Below, one piece after another: positions 4,534 through 37,873 of a stretch of DNA of 37,873 bases. The translations under genes and the position numbers were made by a program. This stretch comes from a virus. The stretch lies in IMG/VR virus record IMGVR_UViG_3300023504_000019, positions 1-37,873 of that record; one strand, 5' to 3'. Numbering within the stretch: the stretch's first letter is position 1; every line of letters starts with the position of its first letter. Under the pieces are notes generated by a model. That model searched no databases. It saw nothing but the letters and a program-made list of their open reading frames with translations, and had not been told where the DNA came from.

Positions 4534-5697
4534 CTATGATTTGCGGGAACGTCCCGGTTTATACTTGGCAATTAGGTACTCCACCGCATAACGGGTAGCG
4601 TCCATTGCGTGGTTATGGTCATCTATCGCCTCTGTGACGTCATACAAGCCCGTCATTCGATCCAACACATAAGAATAGGTATCTAGCTCATCCGTGATCC
4701 CTCGGCTTCCCACAACCACGCAAATCTTCTTGAATTGCTTGATTTGTGCGATGCCCGACATGATGGACCCCGCCCCCTTGATGCAAGGAAATATCTTGCA
4801 CCCCAGTGACGAGATTTCAGCGATACTCTTTTGCTCGGCCGAATCGGCGATAGTCACAACCTTATGCAGCCCTTTCGACTTAAGCAGCGTAGCGATATCC
4901 CAGTTAAGCAGACCGGGCGTATATGCGATTTCCTGCAAATACAGAACGTCATCCAAGAAACCTACTTTCACGATCGCCGTAGGGTCACCCGTGAAACCGA
5001 AGTCCATCCCAAGACAGAATTTAGCGGTAGCCGGGAATTCCTGCACCATCTCGTATTCCGGGAATATCAGACCCTCGGTTCCGCCTGTCTCGCCTTCACC
5101 GAATACCCGCCACCAGTTTTCATCGTTCCTGTTGGATTCGATTTCCTCGACTTGTTCGGGCGTCAGATACGGATTATCGCGATACGTGGAAACTATCTCC
5201 ACCATGTTGTCTCCTACAAAGTACTCGTGTGCCCAAAACTTCTTGACTGGATTAAAGTCAACGAATAGCATGAGACGGGTACGGACCGCCATCTGTCTGA
5301 ACACTTCTTTAGGGACCCTTTGCGCCTCATTGACAAAGAGGATGTCACGGGCGGGACCGAATACCTTAGCGGAATTCTCGCACCCGAAAAATTCGATCTG
5401 TGACCCGTTCTCCGTGGTGTAGATCATCTCGGTGTACTGCATCCGCTTCTCGGACCATACCCCCTCATCCTGTAACATACGTTTGAAGTCACGGAACATA
5501 CCACGCTTCACGCCGGGCAATGTATCCGTGACACACGAAATAAGGAGCGGCTTCTCCGATTGAGTAGCCATCAAGTAGATTAGTTGCAGCATGGACCATG
5601 TTTTCGAGGATCGTGTTCCGCCTCGACTGGATACCCCGCGGATATTCGGGTCCACGGCTGCTGCTAATAACTTGTCAAATACATACGTGGTTTTCAT
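4534..5697 (-). CDS. terL: Terminase large subunit (387 aa)
   Basis: Walker A-like RGGTRSSKTW, Walker B-like ILFVNEAQ. RNaseH-like nuclease motifs GMDFGFTGDPTAIV, IADSAEQKSIAEI and DDHNHAMDATRYA, typical of PBSX/Terminase_3-type TerL. ATGA overlap with the upstream terS. Confidence 0.9.
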   Translation of the reverse strand: MKTTYVFDKLLAAAVDPNIRGVSSRGGTRSSKTWSMLQLIYLMATQSEKPLLISCVTDTLPGVKRGMFRDFKRMLQDEGVWSEKRMQYTEMIYTTENGSQIEFFGCENSAKVFGPARDILFVNEAQRVPKEVFRQMAVRTRLMLFVDFNPVKKFWAHEYFVGDNMVEIVSTYRDNPYLTPEQVEEIESNRNDENWWRVFGEGETGGTEGLIFPEYEMVQEFPATAKFCLGMDFGFTGDPTAIVKVGFLDDVLYLQEIAYTPGLLNWDIATLLKSKGLHKVVTIADSAEQKSIAEISSLGCKIFPCIKGAGSIMSGIAQIKQFKKICVVVGSRGITDELDTYSYVLDRMTGLYDVTEAIDDHNHAMDATRYAVEYLIAKYKPGRSRKS

Positions 5698-6317
5698 TCC
5701 TTCGGTTTATCCTTTAAGTTCTCAACTCCTTTAGCTTTCCTTTCTCTCTTAGTGGAAATGCCTCGCAACTGCTGCAAATTACCTGCTGCTTCGTTGCTGA
5801 GTACCTCCACCTTCAATGATCCTTCTACCTTCTCGCCGCCACTGGTGACATCCCTGTATTCCTTTAGCCCTCTTAGCTTGGCGGTGTAAGTGGCATCGAA
5901 CTGTCCTACCATCGCCGATTTATCCATGTCGTCACGAATCCATTCACGGATGTTATCTATCTCTCTCATGAACTTCGCTGATTCCGCATCTCCAAACTTT
6001 TCGTGCATATCCTTGTAACTCTTCATGCGGTCGGTTAGGTAGCTCCCGTTTGCGCCGAGGAACTGAGTAAATCCGAATTCAGTTACCATCAGTTTCATTT
6101 TCTTCGTGTAACTACGTCCTGCGTTCATCCCCGACTTCACGTAATCAAGCACCTCGATCGGGTGATTCCGGCACCATTGGACGTACACATCGAACACTTC
6201 CCGTAGCTGTCCCGGTTCCGTGAATAGCGGCGTCTTGCCGAATCGTGCGGTGTAAAGACTCCACAGTTCATCGCCGGAGTAGGGGTCGTATATATCGTTT
6301 AATAATTTATTTGCCAT
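5694..6317 (-). CDS. terS: Putative terminase small subunit (207 aa from MANKLL)
   Basis: Immediately upstream of and overlapping terL. First gene after a promoter. The N-terminal segment ...LREVFDVYVQWCRNHP resembles the gp3-type packaging-protein pattern. The track start at 6329 is a GTG; the ATG at 6317 is more likely. Confidence 0.5.
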   Translation of the reverse strand: MANKLLNDIYDPYSGDELWSLYTARFGKTPLFTEPGQLREVFDVYVQWCRNHPIEVLDYVKSGMNAGRSYTKKMKLMVTEFGFTQFLGANGSYLTDRMKSYKDMHEKFGDAESAKFMREIDNIREWIRDDMDKSAMVGQFDATYTAKLRGLKEYRDVTSGGEKVEGSLKVEVLSNEAAGNLQQLRGISTKRERKAKGVENLKDKPKE

Positions 6318-6350
6318 ATCAATGTACACATGCGTGGTTATTTAATGCGG

Positions 6351-6382
6351 CAAAGGTAAGAGAAACAACTGATGATTCCAAA
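6351..6382 (-). promoter_or_regulatory. Bacteroidota-type promoter driving terS and the late arc
   Basis: On the minus strand: TTTG (6382-6379), 20-nt spacer, TACCTTTG (6358-6351). This is an exact fit to TTTG-N19-21-TAnnTTTG, 26-40 nt upstream of the terS start candidates. Confidence 0.6.
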
Positions 6383-6439
6383 GAGGACCGGACCAAGTTA
6401 TGGCGTGCCGGATGGGGCCGTGAATCGCTAGGTCATCTC

Positions 6440-7080
6440 ACTGCAAAATCGGGTGGATAGATTACTAATCACTATAAACACGTGATTCTCAGACGCTTAC
6501 AAAAAAGGTGATAGGTAGTGATTTTTTACTATCACCTGTAACTCACTGATTCACTGCTATTTACAGAAAATGGATAGATCGATAGGAAAATCTCAAAGAG
6601 TATATCAGAAAAACACGGTTTGCGATGTTCAATTAACATAATCGAATTAACACAATTCATCAACACACCGTTTTTTTTCTTGTAATAGCAAATACCCCAT
6701 TTTTACCTATTTTCCTATCATCCCTATCATAACTAACTAATAATCAGTAACTTACAATGATAGATATATAAATAGGCATCTATCTTTAAATATGTTAACT
6801 ACCTTGAAATGAGCAAGTTACAATGATTGGTAAAAAATCACTACCTATCCATTTTCTCCTACTTGGTTTGTATCTTACTGTATTTCAATCACTTATGAAG
6901 CTACTAGGGGACTCCCGTTTTCCCTGCCTTCCTATCTATATGGACCCTCGAAAACTACCGTTTTTAATGTTATGTAAATATTCTCGCTTCCGTATTTTCG
7001 CCTCACAGCACCTTTGTATCCAAACTATTCAAAACTAATCAAAAAGACGCAATGAAAAATTCGGACCCTAGATAGGGGTG
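6440..7080. repeat. Iteron-rich non-coding module A (GATAG-core repeats around an AT-rich spacer)
   Basis: GGATAGAT at 6455-6462 and 6572-6579. GATAGG at 6581-6586 and 7071-7076. GATAGAT at 6759-6765. Reverse copies CCTATC at 6714-6719 and 6723-6728, ATCTATCT at 6778-6785, CCTATCC at 6844-6850, CCTATCTAT at 6931-6939. Perfect dyad AGGTGATAG (6506-6514) / CTATCACCT (6529-6537). No credible ORF on either strand. Confidence 0.8.
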
Positions 7081-7228
7081 AAAAACTGTTCTTCCATTTT
7101 TTGGCAAAAATAGGGTGATTCAAAGGTTTTGCCTCGCTACTGTAAACATTTATACAGGCTAATTTCGGAAACGTTTTATCACACATTTCTCTACTTTGCA
7201 CAAAACACTACCGTCTCCCGAAAATAAG

Positions 7229-7269
7229 AAACGAGGACCCTCGGCAATCACACCGAAAAGTCCTCGTTT
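7229..7269 (-). terminator. Rho-independent-type terminator ending the early arc
   Basis: 10-bp stem AAACGAGGAC (7229-7238) / GTCCTCGTTT (7260-7269) with inner TCGG/CCGA pairing. On the minus strand it is followed by CTTATTTTCGG. It lies 26 nt downstream of the last early CDS. Confidence 0.6.
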
Positions 7270-7294
7270 GACACTATGAAATTAAGAAAAGGTT

Positions 7295-7909
7295 TTACAA
7301 CATTATTGCATATTTCTCGCAAATGTGGTTTAGAAAGCTATTTTTCAGCAGTGAATTCGTTTCCCCTTCCAAGAATACCCATGATGATCCGTCCCATTCG
7401 AAGATAGAAACGCCACCATTTGCGTAGTGCCGGACCTCATAGATCGGCGGCATCTCTCCGGCTTCCGGTTGTTCCCGACCTATCCGGATGAGGCGTTTGG
7501 TACGGGATTCCTTCGCTGCTAGCTTTTCTTCGAATTGCGCCGCTTCATATCGGGTGGTGGATAGACAGCCGTTCACCATCTTCTTTCTCTCCTCGCTTAC
7601 CGATAACGGGCTACGGCGTTCAAACAGGTTACGGCAAAACTCTTGGAACTCGATCCGGTTATCCTCGATAACGTGTGCCGGGCAAAGGTAACGAGGCGAC
7701 CCTTTTTTCATTGGGTCTAGCTCCGGCTTGTATCCCATCTGTCTCATGAACTGCATAAAGACGAACGCCCGCACATTAAAGATTCTAGCGACTTGCCTAA
7801 CATCTACACACCTAGTAGAAGGGCTATTAGCAATACGAACGCTGCACCCGCAACTAGTCCCACGGCGATCGCCGCAATTATCGAAAGTATGATTGATTTC
7901 ATTTTTCAT
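7295..7909 (-). CDS. Hypothetical early protein (204 aa from MKNEINHTF), last gene of the early arc
   Basis: Track ORF 7295..7984. The ATG at 7909 lies 2 nt after the upstream stop, so the longer form would overlap the preceding gene by 73 nt. Cys-rich N-terminus (CGDRRGTSCGCS). No family recognised. Confidence 0.55.
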   Translation of the reverse strand: MKNEINHTFDNCGDRRGTSCGCSVRIANSPSTRCVDVRQVARIFNVRAFVFMQFMRQMGYKPELDPMKKGSPRYLCPAHVIEDNRIEFQEFCRNLFERRSPLSVSEERKKMVNGCLSTTRYEAAQFEEKLAAKESRTKRLIRIGREQPEAGEMPPIYEVRHYANGGVSIFEWDGSSWVFLEGETNSLLKNSFLNHICEKYAIML

Positions 7910-7911
7910 TG

Positions 7912-8574
7912 TTATCTTGGATTTAAAAACATTAATGTTAGTAGTGTACCGATCGCGAATCCGGCGACCGCTACTCCCCACCATACACGACTGGTTCGTT
8001 CTCTGAAGGATTCATATTCCTCTTTCAAGTCTTTTAATCCGGTTCGTAGCCTGTTATTCTCGATTGATAAGTCCGCCATTTTAATTTGCGCCGCCTCTTC
8101 CGCCTTATCTCTCCGGTAATCTTTGTAACAGTCGGGACAAAGCTTATACGGCTCGCATCCGTACTTCCCGGGTACCCTTGTTATCAAGGAAGGGTGTACC
8201 GCTTTCCCGCAACATGAACATTTACCCCTCAACGCCTCATGCGTTCCGTTGGCAAACTTAATCGCCGCCTCCGTTATCCGGCTTGCCTTCCGTTTCGCCT
8301 CGGTTTCTGCACGCACCTTAGTTTCTATGCTCGCCTCGATCTCCTTCCTTGGCTTATCCTTAAATTCCGTCATTGACTCGTACTTTGCTTTTGGCAAGCC
8401 CTCCACGCTAATCACCTTCTCCTTGTTTTCCTTTAGCTTCCGTTCCGCATTATCATGGATAAAAGACTGAGCGGCGATCCCCATGCACCGGTGACACAGG
8501 CACATGCCATAGTTGAACATGAATAAATTAGCTATCTTGGTTTCTCCGCACACGGCGCAACTTGGTCCCATCAT
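7912..8574 (-). CDS. Tail-anchored membrane protein with two CxxC...CxxC zinc ribbons and a coiled coil (220 aa)
   Basis: CAVCGE...CLCHRC and CSCCGK...CPDCY motifs. Charged helical middle region. C-terminal hydrophobic segment WWGVAVAGFAIGTLLTLMFL. Confidence 0.55.
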   Translation of the reverse strand: MMGPSCAVCGETKIANLFMFNYGMCLCHRCMGIAAQSFIHDNAERKLKENKEKVISVEGLPKAKYESMTEFKDKPRKEIEASIETKVRAETEAKRKASRITEAAIKFANGTHEALRGKCSCCGKAVHPSLITRVPGKYGCEPYKLCPDCYKDYRRDKAEEAAQIKMADLSIENNRLRTGLKDLKEEYESFRERTSRVWWGVAVAGFAIGTLLTLMFLNPR

Positions 8575-8768
8575 CGCTTGCCTCCTTTCTTCATATCTGA
8601 GATAGCACCCGCCATAGATCGGAGTCCGTACAATGCTCGTTTCAGCATATTATCTTTAAACTTTTGGTCTTTCTCAGCCCAACATTCGCCGCAAAACGAA
8701 CCTATCGGGGTGGCGTAGCGGGGACCGCCGTCTGCTATTACTTTCCCGCATTCAACACATTTAATCAT
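8571..8768 (-). CDS. Small zinc-ribbon protein (65 aa)
   Basis: CVECGK-x18-CGECW. Same CxxCG[KE]...CxxC[WYM] pattern as both ribbons of the downstream 220-aa protein. ATGA overlaps on both sides. Confidence 0.55.
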   Translation of the reverse strand: MIKCVECGKVIADGGPRYATPIGSFCGECWAEKDQKFKDNMLKRALYGLRSMAGAISDMKKGGKR

Positions 8769-11245: not shown

Positions 11246-11305
11246 CAAATGTACGGCGAAGTTTTGGTTTTGCCAAATTTTGAACAAAGTATTAACATTC
11301 ATTAG
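11246..11305 (-). promoter_or_regulatory. Promoter cassette P1 (Bacteroidota type, conserved about 65-bp unit)
   Basis: Minus strand: TTTG (11277-11274), 20 nt, TACATTTG (11253-11246). The upstream block TAATGAATGTTAATACTTTGTTCAAAATTTGGCAAA is shared with P2 and P3. Confidence 0.65.
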
Positions 11306-15220: not shown

Positions 15221-15291
15221 CAAATATAGGGCAGGTTTCTGAATTTGCCAAATTTTGAACAAAGAATTAACTTTGATTAACGATACAATAA
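15221..15291 (-). promoter_or_regulatory. Promoter cassette P2 (Bacteroidota type)
   Basis: Minus strand: TTTG (15252-15249), 20 nt, TATATTTG (15228-15221). Upstream block GTTAATCAAAGTTAATTCTTTGTTCAAAATTTGGCAAA. Confidence 0.65.
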
Positions 15292-15332
15292 AAAACCACC
15301 CTTACAGGACCGTCTCGGCTGTGTAAGGGTGG
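15290..15332 (-). terminator. Rho-independent terminator after the primase-helicase gene
   Basis: 11-bp perfect stem CCACCCTTACA (15296-15306) / TGTAAGGGTGG (15322-15332), followed on the minus strand by TTTTTT (15295-15290). Confidence 0.75.
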
Positions 15333-15458: not shown

Positions 15459-17819
15459 CTATCTCCGCACAAACATTGTTTGCTTACCGTACAGTTTTAC
15501 GTTTCTCTGCTTGTCGGGTTTAAATCCCGCCCGTTTCAGCATGTTCGCTACCTGTTTAGCCCTTGCCACGTTGAAGTCGGTACGCTTGTTTCCTAAGCAT
15601 TCCACCCATATTTCGAAGGCACAAAAGCTGTCCCGTATCTCGGTTCCCTCCGGTTGCAATCCCACTCCGTTAACGAAATCCAAACGGTCGGCTACATACA
15701 TATCCTCCCAATTGGCGGGGAACTTGCGGTTAACGTATTCGAATACCAAACCTTCTTGCGGGTCCTTCTCGGTAAATTCTTCACGTTTACCGTTAGCTAT
15801 CTCCTCGGCTTCCGGTGACAGGATAAGACTTTCGCCGGCTTTATACAATTCTACCGCTTCCGCCCAAAGTTGGTCCACGATAACTTGAAATTCCGCTTTC
15901 CGTTTCGGATTCAGAAATATATCAGATGCCGGAACACGTCTCACAGGGACCGGAAAGAATCGGCGGCTTCCCGTGGGGTCCTTAAGGAAATCATCATTGT
16001 TGGTGGACCCAAAGAAAACACATTGCCGTCTGTGTGTCTTAACTCGCATCGCATATGCCGCCCTATAGGTATCCTCCGTTTTAGAGATGAAATTCTTCAT
16101 CGTCTCTATGTCGGTTTTCTTTAGGGCTGACAGTTCGGCAAGCTCCACAAGCCAAGACTTTTGTAGGGCTTCATAGGCTTTCGTGCCCTCCATCGAAACA
16201 AGCGAGTCGTTAAACCAACCGTTCGCAAGTTTCTGTATAAGAGTTGACTTACCTACGCCCTGCTCTGATACCATGATGAACGCCGTATCAAACTTTGTTC
16301 CCGGTTCGAAGATGCGGGCAACCGCCGCCACGAGCATTTTACGGAATGCCTCTGCCGTGTAAATGTTCTGTTCGGCACCCATGTAATCGTGCATGAACGT
16401 GTCTATTCTTGGAATAAAATCCCATTCCAAACCATTCAAATAGTCTTTAATCGGGTGGAAAGAATTCTCCAAAGCCAGTACTTCGATCACGTCGTTTAAC
16501 CTGTCTTTCGCATACAGGCGGTGAAGGCGTTCGATTCTACATTTGATAACAGCTACCCCGGTATCGTCCAGTACGTCACCTTTTACTTTCGTCTTGTCAA
16601 AGTACGGTGTGCGGGTATAAACCACCACGTCACGGAAAAGGTCATAAGCAAGTAACTTGTTCAATAACGGGTCAGACTTAAAGGCGTTGATAAAGTTAAC
16701 CGTCGTATTGGTCTTGTTACCTTTTGAGTCAAGGTCCCATTCGATTTCCGTTTCTTCCTCTGTCTCTGCAATGGCTTCGTCCGGAATTTCCTCGAAATCG
16801 CCTAGATAATCCTCTACGGCGGTTAGTTCCTTAACGACTTCCGAATCCTCATGTACTAGCTGATTCATTGCCGTCTCGCTCTCCTTCTTCCCCAAATGTC
16901 CGAACAAGTGAACACGTACCAAGTCATAAGCGTTGTATGTGTGTCCGTCTCCGATGGGGTCAGTTGAATGGTGGGAATAAGCGAATTTATCTTCATACAC
17001 TACCATTCCGGCGGCGGATGTTCCACCCTTGTATGTGTATCGGTCGTTACCGCATTCCTCGTAAACATCGGACAGATATTTTTCTATCGCTCCCTGTATG
17101 GTGTAAACGCGACAGAACGCACCGATTAATCCGGTCTTGGTTGTGGGGTCGGCTGATTCTTTGATGAGCGTTCTTACCGTTTGCTCTTCGCTGTCAGCGA
17201 ACGCCCATAGGCGAACGTCTTGCCAAGCCTCACCGCCTCCGTACAAGTCTAGGATGTAGTCTACATCCAGTGGTTCGCCTTCTTGCTGCTCGAAATAGAA
17301 TTGTTGGTCACAGGAAATGGTAGCCCAAAACATTAAACGCTCGGCTTGGAACGTAGTCGGGTCGAATAGTTCGATCCCCATTATTTCCGCCACTTTGCGT
17401 GAACAAGCCTCGTACTCTTCCCGTGTATCTATTTCCCTATTCAAAGGGATAATAAGGCGGAATCTACGCTTGTTCGGTCTATCGGAACGTGTACCATAGA
17501 TGGCTGCGGCGCAACCGAACTTGATAGAGAAATCGAAAAAGAAATCATCGTTCCCGTAGTCAACATCCAATGTGATAAGTGATCGTGATGTTACCGAATT
17601 CTTGGTGCGGCGACCTCCGGAAAGCGTGCCACCTACGAAACCGCCCTTGTCTTTGCGGATAGCCCTTTCCGACTTTGCTAGCAAATCATATTCTCTGACG
17701 GTTTCTGTATCCACCTTCGGCGTGGAAAGGATGCCTATCAGCTCATCCCATGTGTAAGACTTCCTTTTCCAATTCGTTGAACGGGCACCACCACCGACAG
17801 AGATATTGTATTTTTCCAT
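15459..17819 (-). CDS. Bifunctional primase-polymerase / VirE (D5-like SF3) helicase (786 aa)
   Basis: C-terminal P-loop MVSEQGVGKSTLIQKL and the VirE signature FFGSTNNDDFLKDPTGSRRFFPV. The N-terminal half has PrimPol-like acidic motifs (LITLDVDYG). Confidence 0.85.
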   Translation of the reverse strand: MEKYNISVGGGARSTNWKRKSYTWDELIGILSTPKVDTETVREYDLLAKSERAIRKDKGGFVGGTLSGGRRTKNSVTSRSLITLDVDYGNDDFFFDFSIKFGCAAAIYGTRSDRPNKRRFRLIIPLNREIDTREEYEACSRKVAEIMGIELFDPTTFQAERLMFWATISCDQQFYFEQQEGEPLDVDYILDLYGGGEAWQDVRLWAFADSEEQTVRTLIKESADPTTKTGLIGAFCRVYTIQGAIEKYLSDVYEECGNDRYTYKGGTSAAGMVVYEDKFAYSHHSTDPIGDGHTYNAYDLVRVHLFGHLGKKESETAMNQLVHEDSEVVKELTAVEDYLGDFEEIPDEAIAETEEETEIEWDLDSKGNKTNTTVNFINAFKSDPLLNKLLAYDLFRDVVVYTRTPYFDKTKVKGDVLDDTGVAVIKCRIERLHRLYAKDRLNDVIEVLALENSFHPIKDYLNGLEWDFIPRIDTFMHDYMGAEQNIYTAEAFRKMLVAAVARIFEPGTKFDTAFIMVSEQGVGKSTLIQKLANGWFNDSLVSMEGTKAYEALQKSWLVELAELSALKKTDIETMKNFISKTEDTYRAAYAMRVKTHRRQCVFFGSTNNDDFLKDPTGSRRFFPVPVRRVPASDIFLNPKRKAEFQVIVDQLWAEAVELYKAGESLILSPEAEEIANGKREEFTEKDPQEGLVFEYVNRKFPANWEDMYVADRLDFVNGVGLQPEGTEIRDSFCAFEIWVECLGNKRTDFNVARAKQVANMLKRAGFKPDKQRNVKLYGKQTMFVRR

Positions 17820-20611: not shown

Positions 20612-20672
20612 CAAATATATGACAAGTTTTTGATACTTCCAAATTTTGACAAAACTGTTAACGTTGATTAAC
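20612..20672 (-). promoter_or_regulatory. Promoter cassette P3 (Bacteroidota type)
   Basis: Minus strand: TTTG (20643-20640), 20 nt, TATATTTG (20619-20612). The upstream block GTTAATCAACGTTAACAGTTTTGTCAAAATTTGG overlaps the stop of the nuclease gene. Confidence 0.65.
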
Positions 20673-21840
20673 TTTCGATGTCGAAATCACTTGATACATC
20701 ATAGTCCTTACCGGGGTGACTGTCCGGGACAAGTTTAGGTGCACCGGGCTGAGACTTAACGTATTCACCCAATTTGGCGGTGAAAACCTTCTTTCCCACT
20801 AGCTTCTCTAGGTCGGTGATCCCTTTCAGACTGATGTTCAGCACTTCGTCTTCTAGGTATTCTTTTAGAAGGATGTTACGCACCTTATCGGGGTCTACTA
20901 TCTTCCGGGCTGTCCGTCCCTCAACTAGCTTGTACCCTTCCCACTTCTTTCCCCTCATAGCCTCGCTATATGCGTATTGGTTGAGAGATTCAAGCCACGA
21001 CTTATACCTATCCAGTTTACCAAGCATATCGACAATTTCCTCATCAGTCATAACCAATGTGTCGGGATGTTCTTCGAAGTCACGGGCTATCTCATCCTTT
21101 TGCGCTCGGCATGTGGCTTTCACCGGGCAAAACTGGCACCAACTTCCTACCACCTGCTTTCCCTTTCCTTCGAACGCTAGCTTGGCTTTAGGCTGCAATA
21201 TCTTCGTAGCCCATTCTAGCAGATCGGGGACCGACATTTCGATAGTATCGTAGTGGTGTAATCTAGGCTGTCCCACTGACATACGAACGTACTTGATACT
21301 TCCATTGTTGAACTTGGCAAGCGCACCAAGTGCGTACATTTTGAACTGTGGGCTTTCCGCCGGGACCTTCACCCCTTTTCCATACTTAAGGTCTATGATG
21401 TGCAAAATAGAAGAGGATAACAGTGTAACATCGGCACTACCGAACGATTCCGGTGCAAACTTAGAGATATCTAGCTTTTCCTCTAGGTGTGTTGCCACTG
21501 GTCCTCCAAGCGGTCCTTTCTGCATCTCGTAGAATTCTCCCGCCACGAAGTTAACGTATTCGCCTACCGCATCTCTCATTTCCTCTGAGAAGTACTTGTT
21601 TTTGGCTATTTCATCCGGGACGGGCATCTCGTCGCATTCGGGGTAAAACGTTCCATTTATCCAACTTTTCAGCGCATATTCAGCCAATTCGTGCGCTGTC
21701 GTGCCTTCCTCGGCGTATTCGCTTGTCTTGCTTCCGGCGGCTTCCGCTAGGCGTGCGGACGGCGTGCAATTAAGCCAACGCTCGGAGGATGAAGGGGACA
21801 AAACAGCGTGTCCCCTTTCGGAATGGTTTATGCTTGACAT
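20668..21840 (-). CDS. DUF2800-type PD-(D/E)XK (Cas4-like) nuclease (390 aa)
   Basis: N-terminal HAVLSPSSSERWLNCTPS. Catalytic-like core ILHIIDLKYGKG. C-terminal cysteine cluster CQFCPVKATC, consistent with a Cas4-type Fe-S site together with the N-terminal Cys. Confidence 0.8.
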   Translation of the reverse strand: MSSINHSERGHAVLSPSSSERWLNCTPSARLAEAAGSKTSEYAEEGTTAHELAEYALKSWINGTFYPECDEMPVPDEIAKNKYFSEEMRDAVGEYVNFVAGEFYEMQKGPLGGPVATHLEEKLDISKFAPESFGSADVTLLSSSILHIIDLKYGKGVKVPAESPQFKMYALGALAKFNNGSIKYVRMSVGQPRLHHYDTIEMSVPDLLEWATKILQPKAKLAFEGKGKQVVGSWCQFCPVKATCRAQKDEIARDFEEHPDTLVMTDEEIVDMLGKLDRYKSWLESLNQYAYSEAMRGKKWEGYKLVEGRTARKIVDPDKVRNILLKEYLEDEVLNISLKGITDLEKLVGKKVFTAKLGEYVKSQPGAPKLVPDSHPGKDYDVSSDFDIES

Positions 21841-22580
21841 ATCAATTCGTAAAAGTCGTTATAACGCTCTGATTGCAATGTCCCAAAGTTAGTCGCTCCA
21901 CATTCGGCGAATGCGTCCGCAACGGCTTGACGCTTTTTCAATCGGATTAACTCGGTCGCTTTCTCTCTCAGCATCTCGATCGTCACTTCCGGAAAATCTT
22001 CGGCGGGTGCTGCTTTTTCCGGAACTTCTTCTGCTTCCTGTGGTTCAATAGCTTGCGTCTGTGGTGCGTTCTCTTCCTCTGCTACCGTTTCTTCTTCTTT
22101 GGCCTCGGCGTTAATAGCGGACAGCAATAAGCCCCTCAATTTGGCGTTCGTATTCTTACCGGGACGTTCCGCCGGATCAATATTGAAATGCCCAGTTAGG
22201 ATGTCATAAAGCACCTGTGTAGGAACGGCTTTCATTTCTTCCTCAGACATTGCACAAACGGCGTCTACCGTGTGATAAGTCAAGTCATCTCCCGGTGCTT
22301 CCGGTGCTTCTTCCCCTTTCACCTGTGTAGCTTCCACTACCTTGTTAGCTAAAGCCGCTACCTTTTCCTCGTGGGTGATTTCTTCCTCTACCACTTCGGT
22401 GGGTGCCTTCTTGCTTTCCAAGATTATCGCTTTCCCTGTCGGTACTTCCTTCGGTGTTTCTCCAAAGGTGGGGAAACCGTTCGCTTGGTTACGTTCGTTC
22501 GCCAGTGCGAGAAGAAAATCTGAGGCACATTTCATCTCATTACCTAAACTCTGCTCGTCAATGCTAATCGTTACTTTCAT
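21828..22580 (-). CDS. Highly acidic early protein (250 aa)
   Basis: Long Glu/Pro/Ala-rich tracts (EEAPEAPGDD, AKEEETVAEEENAPQTQAIEPQEAEEVPEKAAPAED). Third gene of the first early transcription unit. No family recognised. Confidence 0.5.
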   Translation of the reverse strand: MKVTISIDEQSLGNEMKCASDFLLALANERNQANGFPTFGETPKEVPTGKAIILESKKAPTEVVEEEITHEEKVAALANKVVEATQVKGEEAPEAPGDDLTYHTVDAVCAMSEEEMKAVPTQVLYDILTGHFNIDPAERPGKNTNAKLRGLLLSAINAEAKEEETVAEEENAPQTQAIEPQEAEEVPEKAAPAEDFPEVTIEMLREKATELIRLKKRQAVADAFAECGATNFGTLQSERYNDFYELICQA

Positions 22581-22582
22581 GA

Positions 22583-22768
22583 TTACTGTTTTTTAAATGT
22601 TAAATATTTGTTAGTTATCTCGTTCTCGTCTACGCGAATCTTCCCCTGTTGGTTCTTATACTCGCTTAAATGACCTTGCCTAATTTTGTACCGGATGGCA
22701 TTTTCCGTTAGCCCTATCATATGGGCTGCTTCGCTGATTCTAATCAACTTTGGTTTTACTTCTTCCAT
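22583..22768 (-). CDS. Small helix-turn-helix DNA-binding protein, MerR/excisionase-like (61 aa)
   Basis: LIRISEAAHMIGLTENAIRYKIRQGHL fits the HTH_17/Xis-type motif. Confidence 0.6.
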   Translation of the reverse strand: MEEVKPKLIRISEAAHMIGLTENAIRYKIRQGHLSEYKNQQGKIRVDENEITNKYLTFKKQ

Positions 22769-23235: not shown

Positions 23236-23259
23236 TTTTCTTAGCTATTCGGGGTGATT

Positions 23260-23650
23260 TTGAGGCGTGGATAGATAACTATCCGTTTAAAGCCTATGAT
23301 TACTAGCGAGTTACGTAATGGGTGGATAGATTAAAAAGTCTTAAAATCATTGTAACTTGCTGCAAATCAGTGATTTATGGAAAAGTGGATAGATTGCTGC
23401 AAACTTCTCAAGAGTATAACGTAAAAGTGTGTATGTTGATTGATAAATTATCTACACAAGCTAAAAATACACACTATAAAAGTTTTCTCATATATACATG
23501 GAAATTACCTATCACATCTATCCATATTAGTATAAATGCCTTAAGATTAGTGAGTTACGAGGATAGGTGAAAAAGTGTTTCCTATCTGTATAAATGTTAA
23601 ATCCCTGCAAATCAATGACTTACAGGGATAGATTTATGGATAGGTTAATT
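23260..23650. repeat. Iteron-rich non-coding module B, paralogous to module A
   Basis: GGATAGAT at 23269-23276, 23324-23331, 23387-23394 and 23626-23633. GGATAGG at 23561-23567 and 23638-23644. Reverse copies CTATCC at 23279-23284, CCTATC at 23508-23513 and 23581-23586, ATCTATCC at 23516-23523. Palindrome GGATAG-ataa-CTATCC at 23269-23284. Confidence 0.8.
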
Positions 23651-23678
23651 TATTTAACTCGATTTTGCCATCTCGACA

Positions 23679-33384: not shown

Positions 33385-35085
33385 TTAAATATTTAACTTA
33401 GTTAATTTAATCTTGCAATCACCCGTAGCAACCGAATAGTCCGACACCGAACGGATGTAAAACCACGATTTGAAAGCATCCAACCAAATCGCACCATCCG
33501 GTCTGTATAACTTCTTAAACCGGAAAAACGGGATATTGGCATTTATCGTCACATCAATACCCGACTTAAACAGGTCATAGTATTTACGGAACGTGTTATA
33601 CAAGTAGTTGTTTGAGTAAAAATAATCAGCAACTACGTTTGTACTGGTGTTAAAGAACATCGCCCGTGGTAGTGTTTGGTCCATCTTGTATGGAAGTTCC
33701 GCCGTAAACACTTCGGCACGAGTAGTGAACATCCCACGTGTCACCGTGTACCACACGTTTTTCTCACCGATCTTGCCGTTTATACTGTTGGCGAATCCGG
33801 ACGAATCCTCTATCTTCTCCGTGCTCACATAGAACTCGCTCCAATCCTGTAAGGTCGTTCCGTTTATCCCCTTCCGGAATCCTGCGGTCGTTATGTCCGC
33901 ATGCAGAAGGTCACGGATATACAGGCTTACTTTTCCGGTGTCCGTTATGGTGAATTCATAAGTCCACATCATAGCCTTGCAAAAGCCATCCAGTAACTCC
34001 CTAGCCGATTCAGTTCCCAATCCCCCATTGATCGTGGTGTTCCCGCCGCCCGATACGCTAATGATTTTAAGAGGAATGCGGAACGCCGCCTCTGAATCCA
34101 TATCTTCGGGTGGGTGCACGTCTAGCGCTATGGTATTGCTCAACGTGGTTAGGTACATCCCGGTGTACGGAGTAGTCCCGCTTATGCGAATCTGTGGACT
34201 AGACGTGTTAGTGACATACCGGATGTGTGTCTTATCGGTTAAGTCGCCGACAGGTGACAGGGAAATAACCACCTGCTTGTGTGTCTTGTCACGCACCGCC
34301 AAGCTAACCGGAGTACCCGCCAAGAATGATACGTCTAGTATTACTTCCTGCGGAATTGACAGGTCACAGAACAGTGTGTCGTAGTTCCCTAGTGTCGGAA
34401 ATGAGGCGGGGTCACGGACAGCGTATTCCATGATGTCGATATCATTATTAAGGTACTTCGTTCCGGCGTCCGTATTCATCGCAAACCGGAAAGCTAGCGT
34501 TATCGCTTGCCCTACATAAACGTCTGTCATTGGTTTGGTTTCGTAGGTGGTACGGATGATTGGCTGCATGTTATCAGCGTAATACGGGAAGTATACGTTT
34601 AATCCGGGTGCGTTGAACGAATCAGCGATCACCCGGTTAAGGTTCACATTGTACGCTCCGCCCACGCCTGCGCCTCTGATATCGGCATGCGACAAAATGC
34701 GGCTAGGTAGTTGTTCGGCGGTTACTGCTGTCTGTGACAGGGCTATGTCGTAGCCCGTTTCCTTGCACGTTACCTTCGCCCGGAAATCACCGGGAATTTG
34801 AACGTTTCCGATGAATACCTGCGCCGTGTACCCGTTCAAAACCTTAATCACTTCATTGCCGGGTAACAGCCATGTTTCGGTGAGATAGTCACGGGGTATC
34901 ATACCGAAATGCCGCATGCCCTTGAATATTTGGTCGTTGTTCGCCGACCTCGGAACGGTGATGGTTCCGGAGTAGGAGCGGGTAGGCTGTGACATCGTGT
35001 AAGGGTCGGCTGACACAACGGATAACTTTAAGTCACCCGTTACGCCGTCCAACATCCGTCTATTTATCATTATTCCTAGTTCCAT
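33385..35085 (-). CDS. Tail tip / baseplate hub-like protein (566 aa from MELGIM)
   Basis: Adjacent to the tape measure. Large and beta-rich. The ATG at 35085 shares one base with the upstream TGA; the track start at 35088 is a TTG. Function inferred from position only. Confidence 0.35.
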   Translation of the reverse strand: MELGIMINRRMLDGVTGDLKLSVVSADPYTMSQPTRSYSGTITVPRSANNDQIFKGMRHFGMIPRDYLTETWLLPGNEVIKVLNGYTAQVFIGNVQIPGDFRAKVTCKETGYDIALSQTAVTAEQLPSRILSHADIRGAGVGGAYNVNLNRVIADSFNAPGLNVYFPYYADNMQPIIRTTYETKPMTDVYVGQAITLAFRFAMNTDAGTKYLNNDIDIMEYAVRDPASFPTLGNYDTLFCDLSIPQEVILDVSFLAGTPVSLAVRDKTHKQVVISLSPVGDLTDKTHIRYVTNTSSPQIRISGTTPYTGMYLTTLSNTIALDVHPPEDMDSEAAFRIPLKIISVSGGGNTTINGGLGTESARELLDGFCKAMMWTYEFTITDTGKVSLYIRDLLHADITTAGFRKGINGTTLQDWSEFYVSTEKIEDSSGFANSINGKIGEKNVWYTVTRGMFTTRAEVFTAELPYKMDQTLPRAMFFNTSTNVVADYFYSNNYLYNTFRKYYDLFKSGIDVTINANIPFFRFKKLYRPDGAIWLDAFKSWFYIRSVSDYSVATGDCKIKLTKLNI

Positions 35086-36508: not shown

Positions 36509-36911
36509 AGTTCAATAAATCATCAGTTACAGAGAACGTTACTTGCCACCCCGACTTTTTCGAGTCATAAATGTTCTGAACCTTTCGGAAGATTAGACCG
36601 TCAACTTCGAAATGACAGACAAAAGTACTCATTAGTTTGTTTAAAGCCAAGTCGGTACGAACCAATGTATCAAGTTCCGCCGCGTTATTCTCCATGTAGT
36701 ATGACTTGTCCAAGCACTGCAACACTACGTTGTACTTCCGGGTAGCGGGCGGTAACTTAGACATCCCGCCGTCCGGTACATCGAACGTCAAGAACATTCC
36801 GGAGATGTCATTCACCATTTCATTCACGGTGTAGTTATCTCCGAAATAGATAGGCAAGCCGAGTTTCACGGCTTGCTCATCCATAAAGGTTAATATATCG
36901 CTGAATCTCAT
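36501..36911 (-). CDS. Hypothetical virion protein (136 aa)
   Basis: ATG at 36911 makes an ATGA overlap with the fibre stop. No motif recognised. Confidence 0.35.
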   Translation of the reverse strand: MRFSDILTFMDEQAVKLGLPIYFGDNYTVNEMVNDISGMFLTFDVPDGGMSKLPPATRKYNVVLQCLDKSYYMENNAAELDTLVRTDLALNKLMSTFVCHFEVDGLIFRKVQNIYDSKKSGWQVTFSVTDDLLNYG

Positions 36912-37873
36912 GGTAACTTAATTATTGCGTCACTGTGACCATTAGAACACATACACGACCCCGAATTAAAGTCGTAGCCCATTACCGCATCACCCTGCAA
37001 AACAATCTCCCCTTCTTGGTTTAGGTTCCGGGATAACACGGCGTTGTCGTACATCCGGATTTTAGGACCCCTTATGAACAAAGTAGCAGACCCATAAGGA
37101 ACGATGATTCTCGGCTGTGGTACGAATTCCAACACTAGCCTAGAAGTGGGTATCTCCGATGGAGTTATCGCAGCCGATGGGTCTTTCTGAATAATAACAG
37201 CAAGTAAAGCCATCTCGGCGCTGTTCATCTGTTCGCCTAAACGGAATTTAGTTACTGCGTCTAGCACCCTAATATACCTTGAAAATCCCGATACCGATGT
37301 TCTACTAGATGACTGGGAAACATTTATAGGACGTTTAAGTCTTATAGTGGTTCCGGATGTTGCTTTAATTTCCTCGTAGGTTTTACCTGCGTCTGCTTGT
37401 CCGCCTCCGGCTGTTCCCTGTTCCCAATAATCCACGCTTAACAGAATGTCTTCCGGGCTAGTACGGTCTAGTTCGTTAACTATGTATCTACGATTCTTGA
37501 ATGCTCGAACGTACTTAACGTTTGCTAAAGGAATGTCGGAGTCTTCGATTAACCCGCCCGGTTCAGATGCGGATGTAGCTTTCTTGATAACGATTCCGGC
37601 ATATGCGGCCCCTGCGGGTGCGTAGTTTGACGTACGTCCCCATCCCGGAGAACTTATGAATATACCATTGGAATCGAAGAAATAGCACTCTACCCAATAC
37701 CCCGAATTACAGGTTATAAGTCCTCTCGGTTCAACCGGAAAAGTATCCATTAATCTAAAACGGTTTCCGAGTGTAGTAGAGATCTTAGAATCCTCCCATG
37801 ACTTTCCCACGGTTTGATAAGCGGTTCCACGTTCCCACATGTTCACATCGAACACCCGGTTAACATAAGGATC
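36908..37873 (-). CDS. Tail fibre / receptor-binding protein: C-terminal 303 codons of the 904-aa junction-spanning ORF (37819-37873 duplicates 1-55)
   Basis: Track ORF 36908..37855 starts at an internal GTG. The frame stays open to the window end and continues from 1..1804 once the repeat is collapsed: 1804 + 911 = 2715 nt = 905 codons including the stop. Confidence 0.65.
   Translation of the reverse strand, partial: DPYVNRVFDVNMWERGTAYQTVGKSWEDSKISTTLGNRFRLMDTFPVEPRGLITCNSGYWVECYFFDSNGIFISSPGWGRTSNYAPAGAAYAGIVIKKATSASEPGGLIEDSDIPLANVKYVRAFKNRRYIVNELDRTSPEDILLSVDYWEQGTAGGGQADAGKTYEEIKATSGTTIRLKRPINVSQSSSRTSVSGFSRYIRVLDAVTKFRLGEQMNSAEMALLAVIIQKDPSAAITPSEIPTSRLVLEFVPQPRIIVPYGSATLFIRGPKIRMYDNAVLSRNLNQEGEIVLQGDAVMGYDFNSGSCMCSNGHSDAIIKLP
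37819..37873. repeat. Terminal direct repeat, right copy (identical to 1-55)
   Basis: Exact 55/55 match to the first 55 bases. A length of 55 is typical of an assembler k-mer overlap on a circular contig. Confidence 0.95.

Follow-up and report, generated by a model that had tools for sequence, protein, structure and literature searches.

The 37,873-nucleotide window considered here is the whole of the IMG/VR record IMGVR_UViG_3300023504_000019. The element in question is a dense array of short repeats (iterons) with a GATAG core, a candidate origin of replication referred to as module A. The window begins and ends with the same 55 bp, as an exact direct repeat (1-55 = 37819-37873), which indicates that the genome is circularly closed, with a length of 37,818 bp. 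The phage is a virulent siphophage of Bacteroides thetaiotaomicron and all of its genes lie on the minus strand. Its closest relatives in GenBank are BT12, BT16, BT19 and BT23 (~89% identity), followed by SJC17, BT04 and BF1-3 (~78%). Module A sits in a 965-bp gap (6330-7294) between the gene at 7295-7909, the last of the early/replication operon, and terS (5694-6329), which encodes the small terminase and is the first gene of the late operon. A related terS is present in 135 GenBank records of Bacteroides, Phocaeicola and Parabacteroides phages. The features of the gap are listed below, with oriA as the name of the putative origin.

6351..6382, minus strand: Bacteroides-type promoter (TTTG-N20-TAccTTTG) for terS and the late operon, conserved in relatives
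6399..6428, no strand: GC-rich element of ~26 nt, GAGATGACCTAGCGATTCACGGCCCC in the orientation of transcription, between the iteron array and the terS promoter
6440..6585, no strand: promoter-proximal cluster of putative oriA, with the GATAG pair 6573/6581 adjoining the spacer, a dyad at 6506-6537 and ATCTATCCAC at 6455-6464 on the minus strand
6586..6714, no strand: iteron-free AT-rich spacer of putative oriA, 129 bp, 70% A+T against 54% for the genome
6709..6860, no strand: promoter-distal cluster of putative oriA, with the CTATC pair 6715/6724 adjoining the spacer, a copy at 6845 and two AATCAG..GTTACA companion boxes
6900..7228, no strand: variable distal filler of the gap, without conserved feature, holding a lone GATAGG at 7071
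7229..7269, minus strand: intrinsic terminator, a perfect 10-bp inverted repeat (7229-7238 / 7260-7269) followed by a T-rich run

An earlier reading made from the letters alone (the original prediction) had described the repeats as a replication origin, and the repeat coordinates it listed are all correct. The forward copies comprise GGATAGAT at 6455 and 6572, GATAGG at 6581 and 7071 and GATAGAT at 6759, and the reverse copies comprise CCTATC at 6714, 6723, 6844 and 6931 and ATCTATC at 6778. Beyond these, GATAGG also occurs at 6510 and GATAGAT at 6456 and 6573. The dyad at 6506-6537 is present as AGGTGATAG-N14-CTATCACCT, and the promoter-distal cluster contains another, GATAG(6759)-N16-CTATC(6780). 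An extended interval for putative oriA, 6440-6940, holds 11 cores, and the proposed split in orientation holds, with the order + + - + + on one side of the spacer and - - + - - - on the other. The inner pairs, 6573/6581 and 6715/6724, point in opposite directions across the 129-bp spacer. The extent of the array was drawn too widely: the conserved core spans only ~6440-6860 rather than the whole of 6383-7100, and the copy at 7071, while present, is isolated and deleted in BT12.

The density of the core was compared with 1000 dinucleotide-preserving shuffles. Within 6383-7100 there are 12 copies of GATAG/CTATC, against 1.47±1.20 in shuffled sequence (maximum 7; 0/1000 reach 12), and seven copies of GATAGG against 0.35. 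Core density is 12.4/kb in module A and 17.1/kb in a second module, B, described below, compared with 3.1/kb in the genome outside both modules. The density is thus well above that of both shuffled and coding sequence, a comparison on which the original prediction had staked its case. Alignment of 21 copies gives the extended consensus A[T/C]CTATC[C/A]A. The 9-mer ATCTATCCA occurs six times genome-wide (two in A, four in B and none elsewhere), where ~0.3 would be expected by chance.

The spacer at 6586-6714 is a putative DNA unwinding element. Its sequence is not kept between sublineages; its A+T richness and its length of ~100-130 bp are kept. An AT-rich stretch between the two clusters had been placed at 6590-6700. 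The stretch itself exists, but of the 37773 windows of 100 bp in the genome, the least stable (rank 1) falls at its right edge, at 6701-6800. The second element proposed to accompany the core (AATCA...GTTACA) is real, and is kept both in relatives and in module B. In addition, 6510-6551 and 6808-6849 are the two arms of a 42-nt inverted repeat with 79% complementarity.

The claim that the gap holds no credible open reading frame (ORF) was borne out, as no ORF in it is conserved among the relatives. The ORF at 6823-7038 is interrupted by an in-frame stop in BT12, where that at 7025-7201 has a frameshift, and more distant relatives match neither of them. A reading of the gap as small coding genes was rejected on these grounds. 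Antisense ORFs have been called in the distal part of module A in two relatives, SJC17_49 (37464-37628) and BF1-3 gp38 (33495-33710), which share 80% identity with each other and have no counterpart in this phage. These calls are probably spurious, made on conserved non-coding DNA.

The gap is bracketed by transcription signals. The terminator at 7229-7269 is kept in BT12 and BT19; it ends the early/replication operon and shields module A from read-through transcription. The filler at 6900-7228 fails to align between this phage and BT12 on the one hand and the SJC17 and BT04 sublineages on the other. As a sigma-70 promoter scan is inapplicable to Bacteroides, a scan for TTTG...TAnnTTTG was used in its place; on the coding strand of the whole genome it gave just five strict matches, the terS promoter among them. 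Strict promoters of this type also lie at 11246-11277, 20612-20643 and 36620-36650.

The array is not confined to this gap. A second module lies in the gap that separates the lysis genes from the first early gene, with the following features.

23255..23665, no strand: putative oriB, paralogue of oriA
23270(+), 23279(-), 23325(+), 23388(+), then the spacer 23393-23508, then 23509(-), 23518(-), 23562(+), 23582(-), 23627(+), 23639(+): iterons of putative oriB

In the orientation of transcription, 23255-23665 and 6420-6900 can be aligned over ~430 nt with the blocks in the same order. The local alignment score is 50, compared with 21.7±2.9 for shuffles (~10 standard deviations above), and a third AT-rich gap has no similarity to either module. 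Module B contains 10 GATAG cores (0.86 in shuffles) and a spacer of 116 bp with 72% A+T; the 100-bp window 23437-23536 in this module ranks second in the genome for low stability. On sequence grounds, A and B are best described as paralogous modules of ~450 bp. The centres of their spacers are 16.8 kb apart on the 37.8-kb circle, on about opposite sides of it. Each module ends ~60-100 bp upstream of a Bacteroides-type promoter, the early one (at ~23180) for B and the late one for A.

Two paralogous copies might also encode a large structured non-coding RNA. The minus strand of 6440-6900 folds with a z-score of -5.55, from the long inverted repeat, and some paired columns change on both sides among relatives. 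This strong single-sequence fold is explained by the inverted clusters of iterons. There is no match in Rfam even at E ≤ 1, and the RNAalifold consensus of 13 relatives is weak, at -24.4 and -16.5 kcal/mol for the two strands (~570 columns; covariation terms -3.0 and -2.3). The consensus fold mostly pairs invariant iterons, whose partners differ between the strands. Furthermore, the region follows a terminator and contains no strict promoter, and the conserved units occur in both orientations. An RNA is therefore extremely improbable, and the reading was rejected as unsupported, given the lack of an Rfam match and the weak consensus folds.

The related phages show which parts of the modules are retained. 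A blastn search of the 965-bp gap against GenBank phages matched only the four closest relatives, and homology of more distant gaps was recovered by position, MAFFT and k-mers. In SJC17 and BT04 a gap of ~900 bp persists and its core aligns under MAFFT, with 12-13 GATAG cores at corresponding positions, and the spacer is replaced by unrelated A-rich sequence. Blocks of 6709-6860 are conserved in 13 relatives. Alignment with relatives had been put forward as a check on whether the motif, rather than the exact sequence, is conserved; motif and layout are indeed kept while the remaining sequence drifts. The inverted arrangement of iterons around a spacer is also found in SJC17, in the B. uniformis phage EMB1 and in the Phocaeicola phage BV200P1, and the two module copies are conserved across the Bacteroidales phage family.

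The iteron word itself changes from lineage to lineage. It is CTATCC in this phage, SJC17 and BF1-3, ATCTATGCA (CTATGCA) in BT2, CTGCACAG in EMB1 and TGGAACAC in BV200P1. A set of 80 IMG/VR loci gives further words, namely ATCTGTGACA, ATCTATTACA, ATCTTTTACA, TGGCACAG, TGTCACAA, CTGGTCA and GTAAACAAT. Searches of IMG/VR based on terS yielded just 3-7 loci. The 8-mer motif screen was noisy for AT-rich words such as AAAGTTTT, and exact 9-mers and inspection were relied upon. In ten whole GenBank genomes, the top k-mers of module A are the top k-mers of module B of that same genome, and many IMG/VR contigs are alike in this respect. A motif learned on A predicts B solely inside its own lineage. 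The presence of the same iteron in both modules, combined with words specific to each lineage, points to a binder encoded by the phage rather than by the host, with which the sites would be co-evolving.

Two side observations concern these relatives. The 14-nt spacer of the dyad, TAAAAAATCACTAC (6515-6528), is identical here (GTGATAG-spacer-CTATCAC) and in EMB1 (CTGCACAG-spacer-CTGTGCAG), where the flanking iterons are wholly different; this spacer may be contacted by a conserved part of the initiator or by a host factor. The Parabacteroides phage PM116P5 has a tandem duplication of ~44 bp (GGGCAACACGTGTACATTATACAACTAATAAAACTTTATACAGTT) in the last ~100 nt upstream of terS, and the k-mer screen gave no clear iteron word for it.

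The changing words bear directly on a role for the host initiator. The consensus of the DnaA box is TTATCCACA, which CTATCCAC resembles; this word accounts for four of the 21 copies and agrees with TTATCCAC at 7 of 8 positions. The iterons could then be host DnaA boxes, and the modules an origin that depends on the host initiator or a sink for DnaA. A host box would be expected to be invariant. BT2, on the same host species, uses ATCTATGCA, and other lineages use unrelated words (CTGCACAG, TGGAACAC, ATCTGTGACA), and it is thus unlikely that a host factor such as DnaA is the reader. The chance that these are DnaA boxes is accordingly slight in the extreme, and the candidate was rejected because this phage (CTATCC) and BT2 (CTATGCA) differ on one host species.

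A phage-encoded candidate for the reader is the primase-helicase, which is encoded in the following setting.

15459..17819, minus strand: 786-aa primase-helicase of PriRep type, with a primase, a VapE-like superfamily 3 (SF3) helicase domain and a C-terminal tail
15296-15306 / 15322-15332: strong terminator hairpin after the primase-helicase gene, followed by a T run
15221-15252: strict Bacteroides promoter after the primase-helicase gene

The terminator and the promoter after the gene indicate that the 'early' region consists of at least two transcription units. Residues 461-683 of the primase-helicase match Pfam PF05272 (E 2e-75), and PHROG primase/helicase families match the protein as well. 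The comparison structures for Rep and PriRep of the Staphylococcus aureus pathogenicity islands (SaPIs) were PDB 7PDS and 7OLA. The SaPI Rep is a self-loading initiator helicase whose C-terminal winged helix reads the iterons, and 7PDS is the complex of SaPI1 Rep1 with DNA (PMC9371898). A single-sequence phmmer search with the primase-helicase finds 7pds_A at E 3e-70. The family profile reaches E 7.8e-109 over residues 29-465 of 477, extending to the C-terminal region of Rep1.

The last ~85 residues of the primase-helicase are the most divergent between lineages, with 16-20% identity versus 45-55% elsewhere in the protein. An AlphaFold2 model gives the tail a strand-helix-helix-strand-strand topology with a predicted local distance difference test score of ~90. 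The assignment of a winged helix to the tail is provisional, resting on the profile alignment together with this topology. With the 147-aa tail alone as query, two homologues were found. The predicted recognition helix differs between class I (ARA[KR]Q..N) and BT2 (SKAREVAG), a difference that is suggestive only. The replication module also encodes an exonuclease, a gp2.5-like single-stranded DNA-binding/annealing protein, a family-A DNA polymerase, a VRR-NUC endonuclease and an SNF2 helicase. Searches of Pfam and PHROG identified no DnaA-, RepA- or O-like initiator among the phage replication proteins, and the primase-helicase is the sole initiator-like protein. By analogy with Rep1, it is likely to be the predicted iteron-binding, self-loading initiator.

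More distant homologues of this protein (38-41% identity) were available from ~30 loci. In 11 of these, the 330 bp directly 3' of the gene contain 9-13 copies of a private 8-mer, where the background is ~3 copies; three further distant loci carry seven. These arrays have one grammar, which consists in order of direct and inverted iterons, two adjacent direct iterons, 95-105 bp of AT-rich sequence and one or two inverted iterons. Among ~60 loci of the Bacteroidales phage family, no iteron family rises above background in the 330 bp after the primase-helicase stop. The simplest reading of these sequences is that the origin moved from a site beside rep into two inter-operon gaps, and was duplicated. 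A common quasi-palindrome, TTAGGCG...ATATAAC...CGCCTAAT, lies in the AT-rich part of distant arrays (L081 6640-6720, L083 9815-9895 and L082 6290-6360; also L094 and L085). It is common to them despite their private iterons and absent from the genome of this phage, and it looks like a second conserved element of an origin.

The layout can be compared with that of the SaPIs. A SaPI origin has 6-12 iterons immediately downstream of rep; they flank an AT-rich centre, with two or more per side, in opposite directions (PMC9371898). Putative oriA has this number of iterons, the central AT-rich region and two oppositely pointing iterons per side, and the iteron sequence is specific to the element, as in the SaPIs. 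The helicase of the phage is homologous to Rep1 (7PDS), the alignment entering the region of the published winged helix, and its primase and helicase are fused as they are in PriRep5 of SaPI5. There are also clear differences. The putative phage origins lie 8-9 kb and 5-6 kb from the initiator gene rather than immediately downstream, and are present as two paralogous copies. The phage module is larger (~420 bp), with AATCAG..GTTACA companion boxes and dyads with a conserved 14-nt spacer. The bearer here is a virulent Bacteroides siphophage with its own DNA polymerase, not a satellite island. The SaPI-like arrangement would work as a SaPI origin does and is linked to one by evolution, and it is classed as a relocated variant, because the array is not downstream of rep here, but is so in at least 11 distant homologues.

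It is proposed, with a probability of roughly 70%, that A (6440-6860) and B (23255-23665) are twin iteron origins of SaPI type, relocated from the initiator gene and present as duplicates ahead of the early and late promoters. The original interpretation as an origin is supported by the enrichment, the paralogy, the two least stable segments of the genome, the conserved layout, the Rep homology and the distant arrays. It had also been suggested that a multi-operator switch or a packaging site would fit equally well. That equality does not stand, since the same module occurs 16.8 kb away without a packaging gene, the same grammar lies beside the primase-helicase gene in distant phages, and a Rep homologue is encoded.

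The main alternative, though an improbable one, is that the modules are arrays of operators or enhancers for a phage transcription factor. Such a factor might be the 61-aa HTH_17/MerR-like early protein (22583-22768), the second early gene, controlling the early promoter from B and the late terS promoter from A. The distance of ~60-100 bp to the two main operon promoters, and the like orientation of both modules relative to transcription, would suit this, and lineage-specific sites common to both modules would also be expected of a fast-evolving regulator. An arrangement of 10-12 sites over 450 bp around an AT-rich spacer of 116-129 bp is untypical of operators, however, and matches the published description of a SaPI origin (PMC9371898). 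The modules persist in the phages of B. uniformis, Phocaeicola and Parabacteroides, in which no homologue of the helix-turn-helix protein or of its neighbours could be detected. In addition, the distant phages display this grammar directly after the primase-helicase gene.

The proximity of module A to terS raises the further question of packaging, in which the array would be the recognition region (pac or cosB-like) of the small terminase, whose gene follows directly. Repeated sites for terS upstream of its gene are a feature of SPP1 pac and lambda cosB. For two clusters of B. thetaiotaomicron phages, alpha and gamma, PhageTerm detected no fixed ends, and the authors of that work suggested headful packaging for them, a mode that needs a pac site. 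This reading is very improbable in view of the duplicate near the early genes, by which the array is not confined to the neighbourhood of the terminase, and of the arrays beside the primase-helicase gene in distant phages. Identity of terS is 85% with SJC17 and 57% with BT2, with no special link to the type of iteron. The GC-rich element at 6399-6428, which stands apart from the array and occurs in module A only, is a better candidate for pac. BT12, SJC17, BT04 and BF1-3 all retain it, BT2 has it inverted at the same place and module B lacks it; it may be a site for terS or for another protein.

Several points weigh against the twin-origin proposal. Both modules are positioned just upstream of promoters, as operator arrays would be. 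Putative oriB has a single iteron (23388) adjoining the promoter-side edge of its spacer, and the next on that side, 23325, lies 63 bp beyond it. Behind its primase-helicase gene this phage has only a terminator and a promoter, and not the canonical origin of the family. A Foldseek search of the tail model against PDB returned nothing significant (best E 0.3); the weak matches include winged-helix DNA-binding domains. Among the closely related phages of the B. caccae/ovatus group, the iteron variants correspond to tail types T1-T4, but these types also follow the phylogeny of the whole protein; covariation of iteron and tail is inseparable from phylogeny, and hence is not independent evidence. 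GC skew is uninformative for an origin here, as all genes share one strand.

Under the twin-origin proposal, the mechanism is inferred by analogy with the SaPI system. The primase-helicase would recognise the ~9-bp iterons (A[T/C]CTATC[C/A]A) and the companion boxes through its winged-helix-like C-terminal tail. It would assemble on both sides of the 116-129 bp AT-rich spacer, at the oppositely pointing pairs of iterons, melt the spacer region and load itself as the replicative helicase. The primase domain and the family-A DNA polymerase of the phage would then begin synthesis. Binding of the iterons, melting of the spacer and the start of replication at the modules are thus predicted steps.

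A two-origin arrangement has been described for the Bacillus phage SPP1. Its oriL and oriR have a similar organisation, of repeats with an AT-rich unwinding element, lie ~13 kb apart and are served by one origin-binding protein. It has been proposed that gp38 bound at oriR stalls the forks and causes the switch from theta to sigma replication, and that the stalled fork is acted on by an exonuclease together with an annealing protein and a resolvase (PMC6316719). The likeness lies in two similar modules of repeats and unwinding element in one siphophage genome, with one origin in a non-coding segment bracketed by transcription signals. The exonuclease, gp2.5-like annealing protein and VRR-NUC endonuclease of the present phage are analogous in function. 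The initiator, however, is unrelated. SPP1 employs gp38, a helicase loader, a DnaB-type helicase and the host polymerases, whereas here an SF3 primase-helicase is combined with an own family-A polymerase. No gp38-type origin-binding protein, separate loader or DnaB-type helicase is found among the replication genes of this phage. A further difference is that oriL of SPP1 is inside the initiator gene. The resemblance is functional and does not amount to membership.

The alpha protein of the satellite phage P4 likewise joins a primase to an SF3 helicase, and its origin-binding domain is at the C-terminus. P4 has an octamer iteron in both orientations and two separate cis-acting clusters of repeats, ori and crr. 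By description, P4 shares with this phage the fused primase-SF3 helicase, the bidirectional iterons and the two clusters. Unlike module B, crr is a helper element ~4.5 kb from ori and not a full paralogue with its own AT-rich spacer. For the large T antigen of SV40 and E1 of papillomaviruses, inverted initiator sites flank an AT-rich or easily melted element, on which two self-loading SF3 hexamers assemble. Their DNA-binding domains are unrelated and the origin is single and compact (~60-100 bp), so that this is an analogy only.

The second copy could be a second origin that fires. It could also be a fork barrier bound by the initiator that triggers the switch to synthesis of concatemers, as proposed for oriR of SPP1. 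A more tentative suggestion, with the odds clearly against it, is that the two copies are non-redundant. In one form, occupancy by the initiator or origin firing would gate the switch from early to late transcription, so that late expression would be coupled to replication without a dedicated late factor. In the other, one copy would be a programmed fork barrier for the transition from theta replication to concatemers.

Three other proteins may be recorded separately. Those encoded at 7912-8574 and 8571-8768 (both minus strand) are adjacent, carry paired CxxC motifs (zinc-ribbon-like) and lie just upstream of the 204-aa gene at the end of the operon. The larger, 7912-8574, has a hydrophobic helix at its end, and neither has a match in Pfam or PHROG. 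The 250-aa early protein at 21828-22580 (minus strand), of unknown function, has 41-46% identity to the versions in SJC17, BT04 and BF1-3, where its neighbours have ~80%, and no homologue in more distant lineages. This protein is fast-evolving and could be a gene for host interaction or anti-defence.

These siphophages of ~36-38 kb form a large family of cultured phages whose hosts are human-gut Bacteroides, Phocaeicola and Parabacteroides. A literature search found no paper on the replication origin of these Bacteroidales phages. The iteron origin of SaPI type is known; its relocation from rep and the two-copy layout, as read from the sequence, would be new. A defined origin and initiator would provide a testable replicon for a genus in which tools for phage and plasmid engineering are scarce, and lineage-specific iterons would predict which phages cross-replicate or interfere. 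The move of a SaPI-type origin away from rep, together with its duplication, would be an evolutionary variant that links the replication of phage satellites with that of phages. After SPP1, for which the two-origin arrangement is still debated, it would also be the second natural example of such an arrangement. If either form of non-redundancy were true, the modules would be a combined device for replication and timing across a large family of human-gut Bacteroidales phages, whose iteron and initiator specificities would have diversified in the manner of incompatibility groups.

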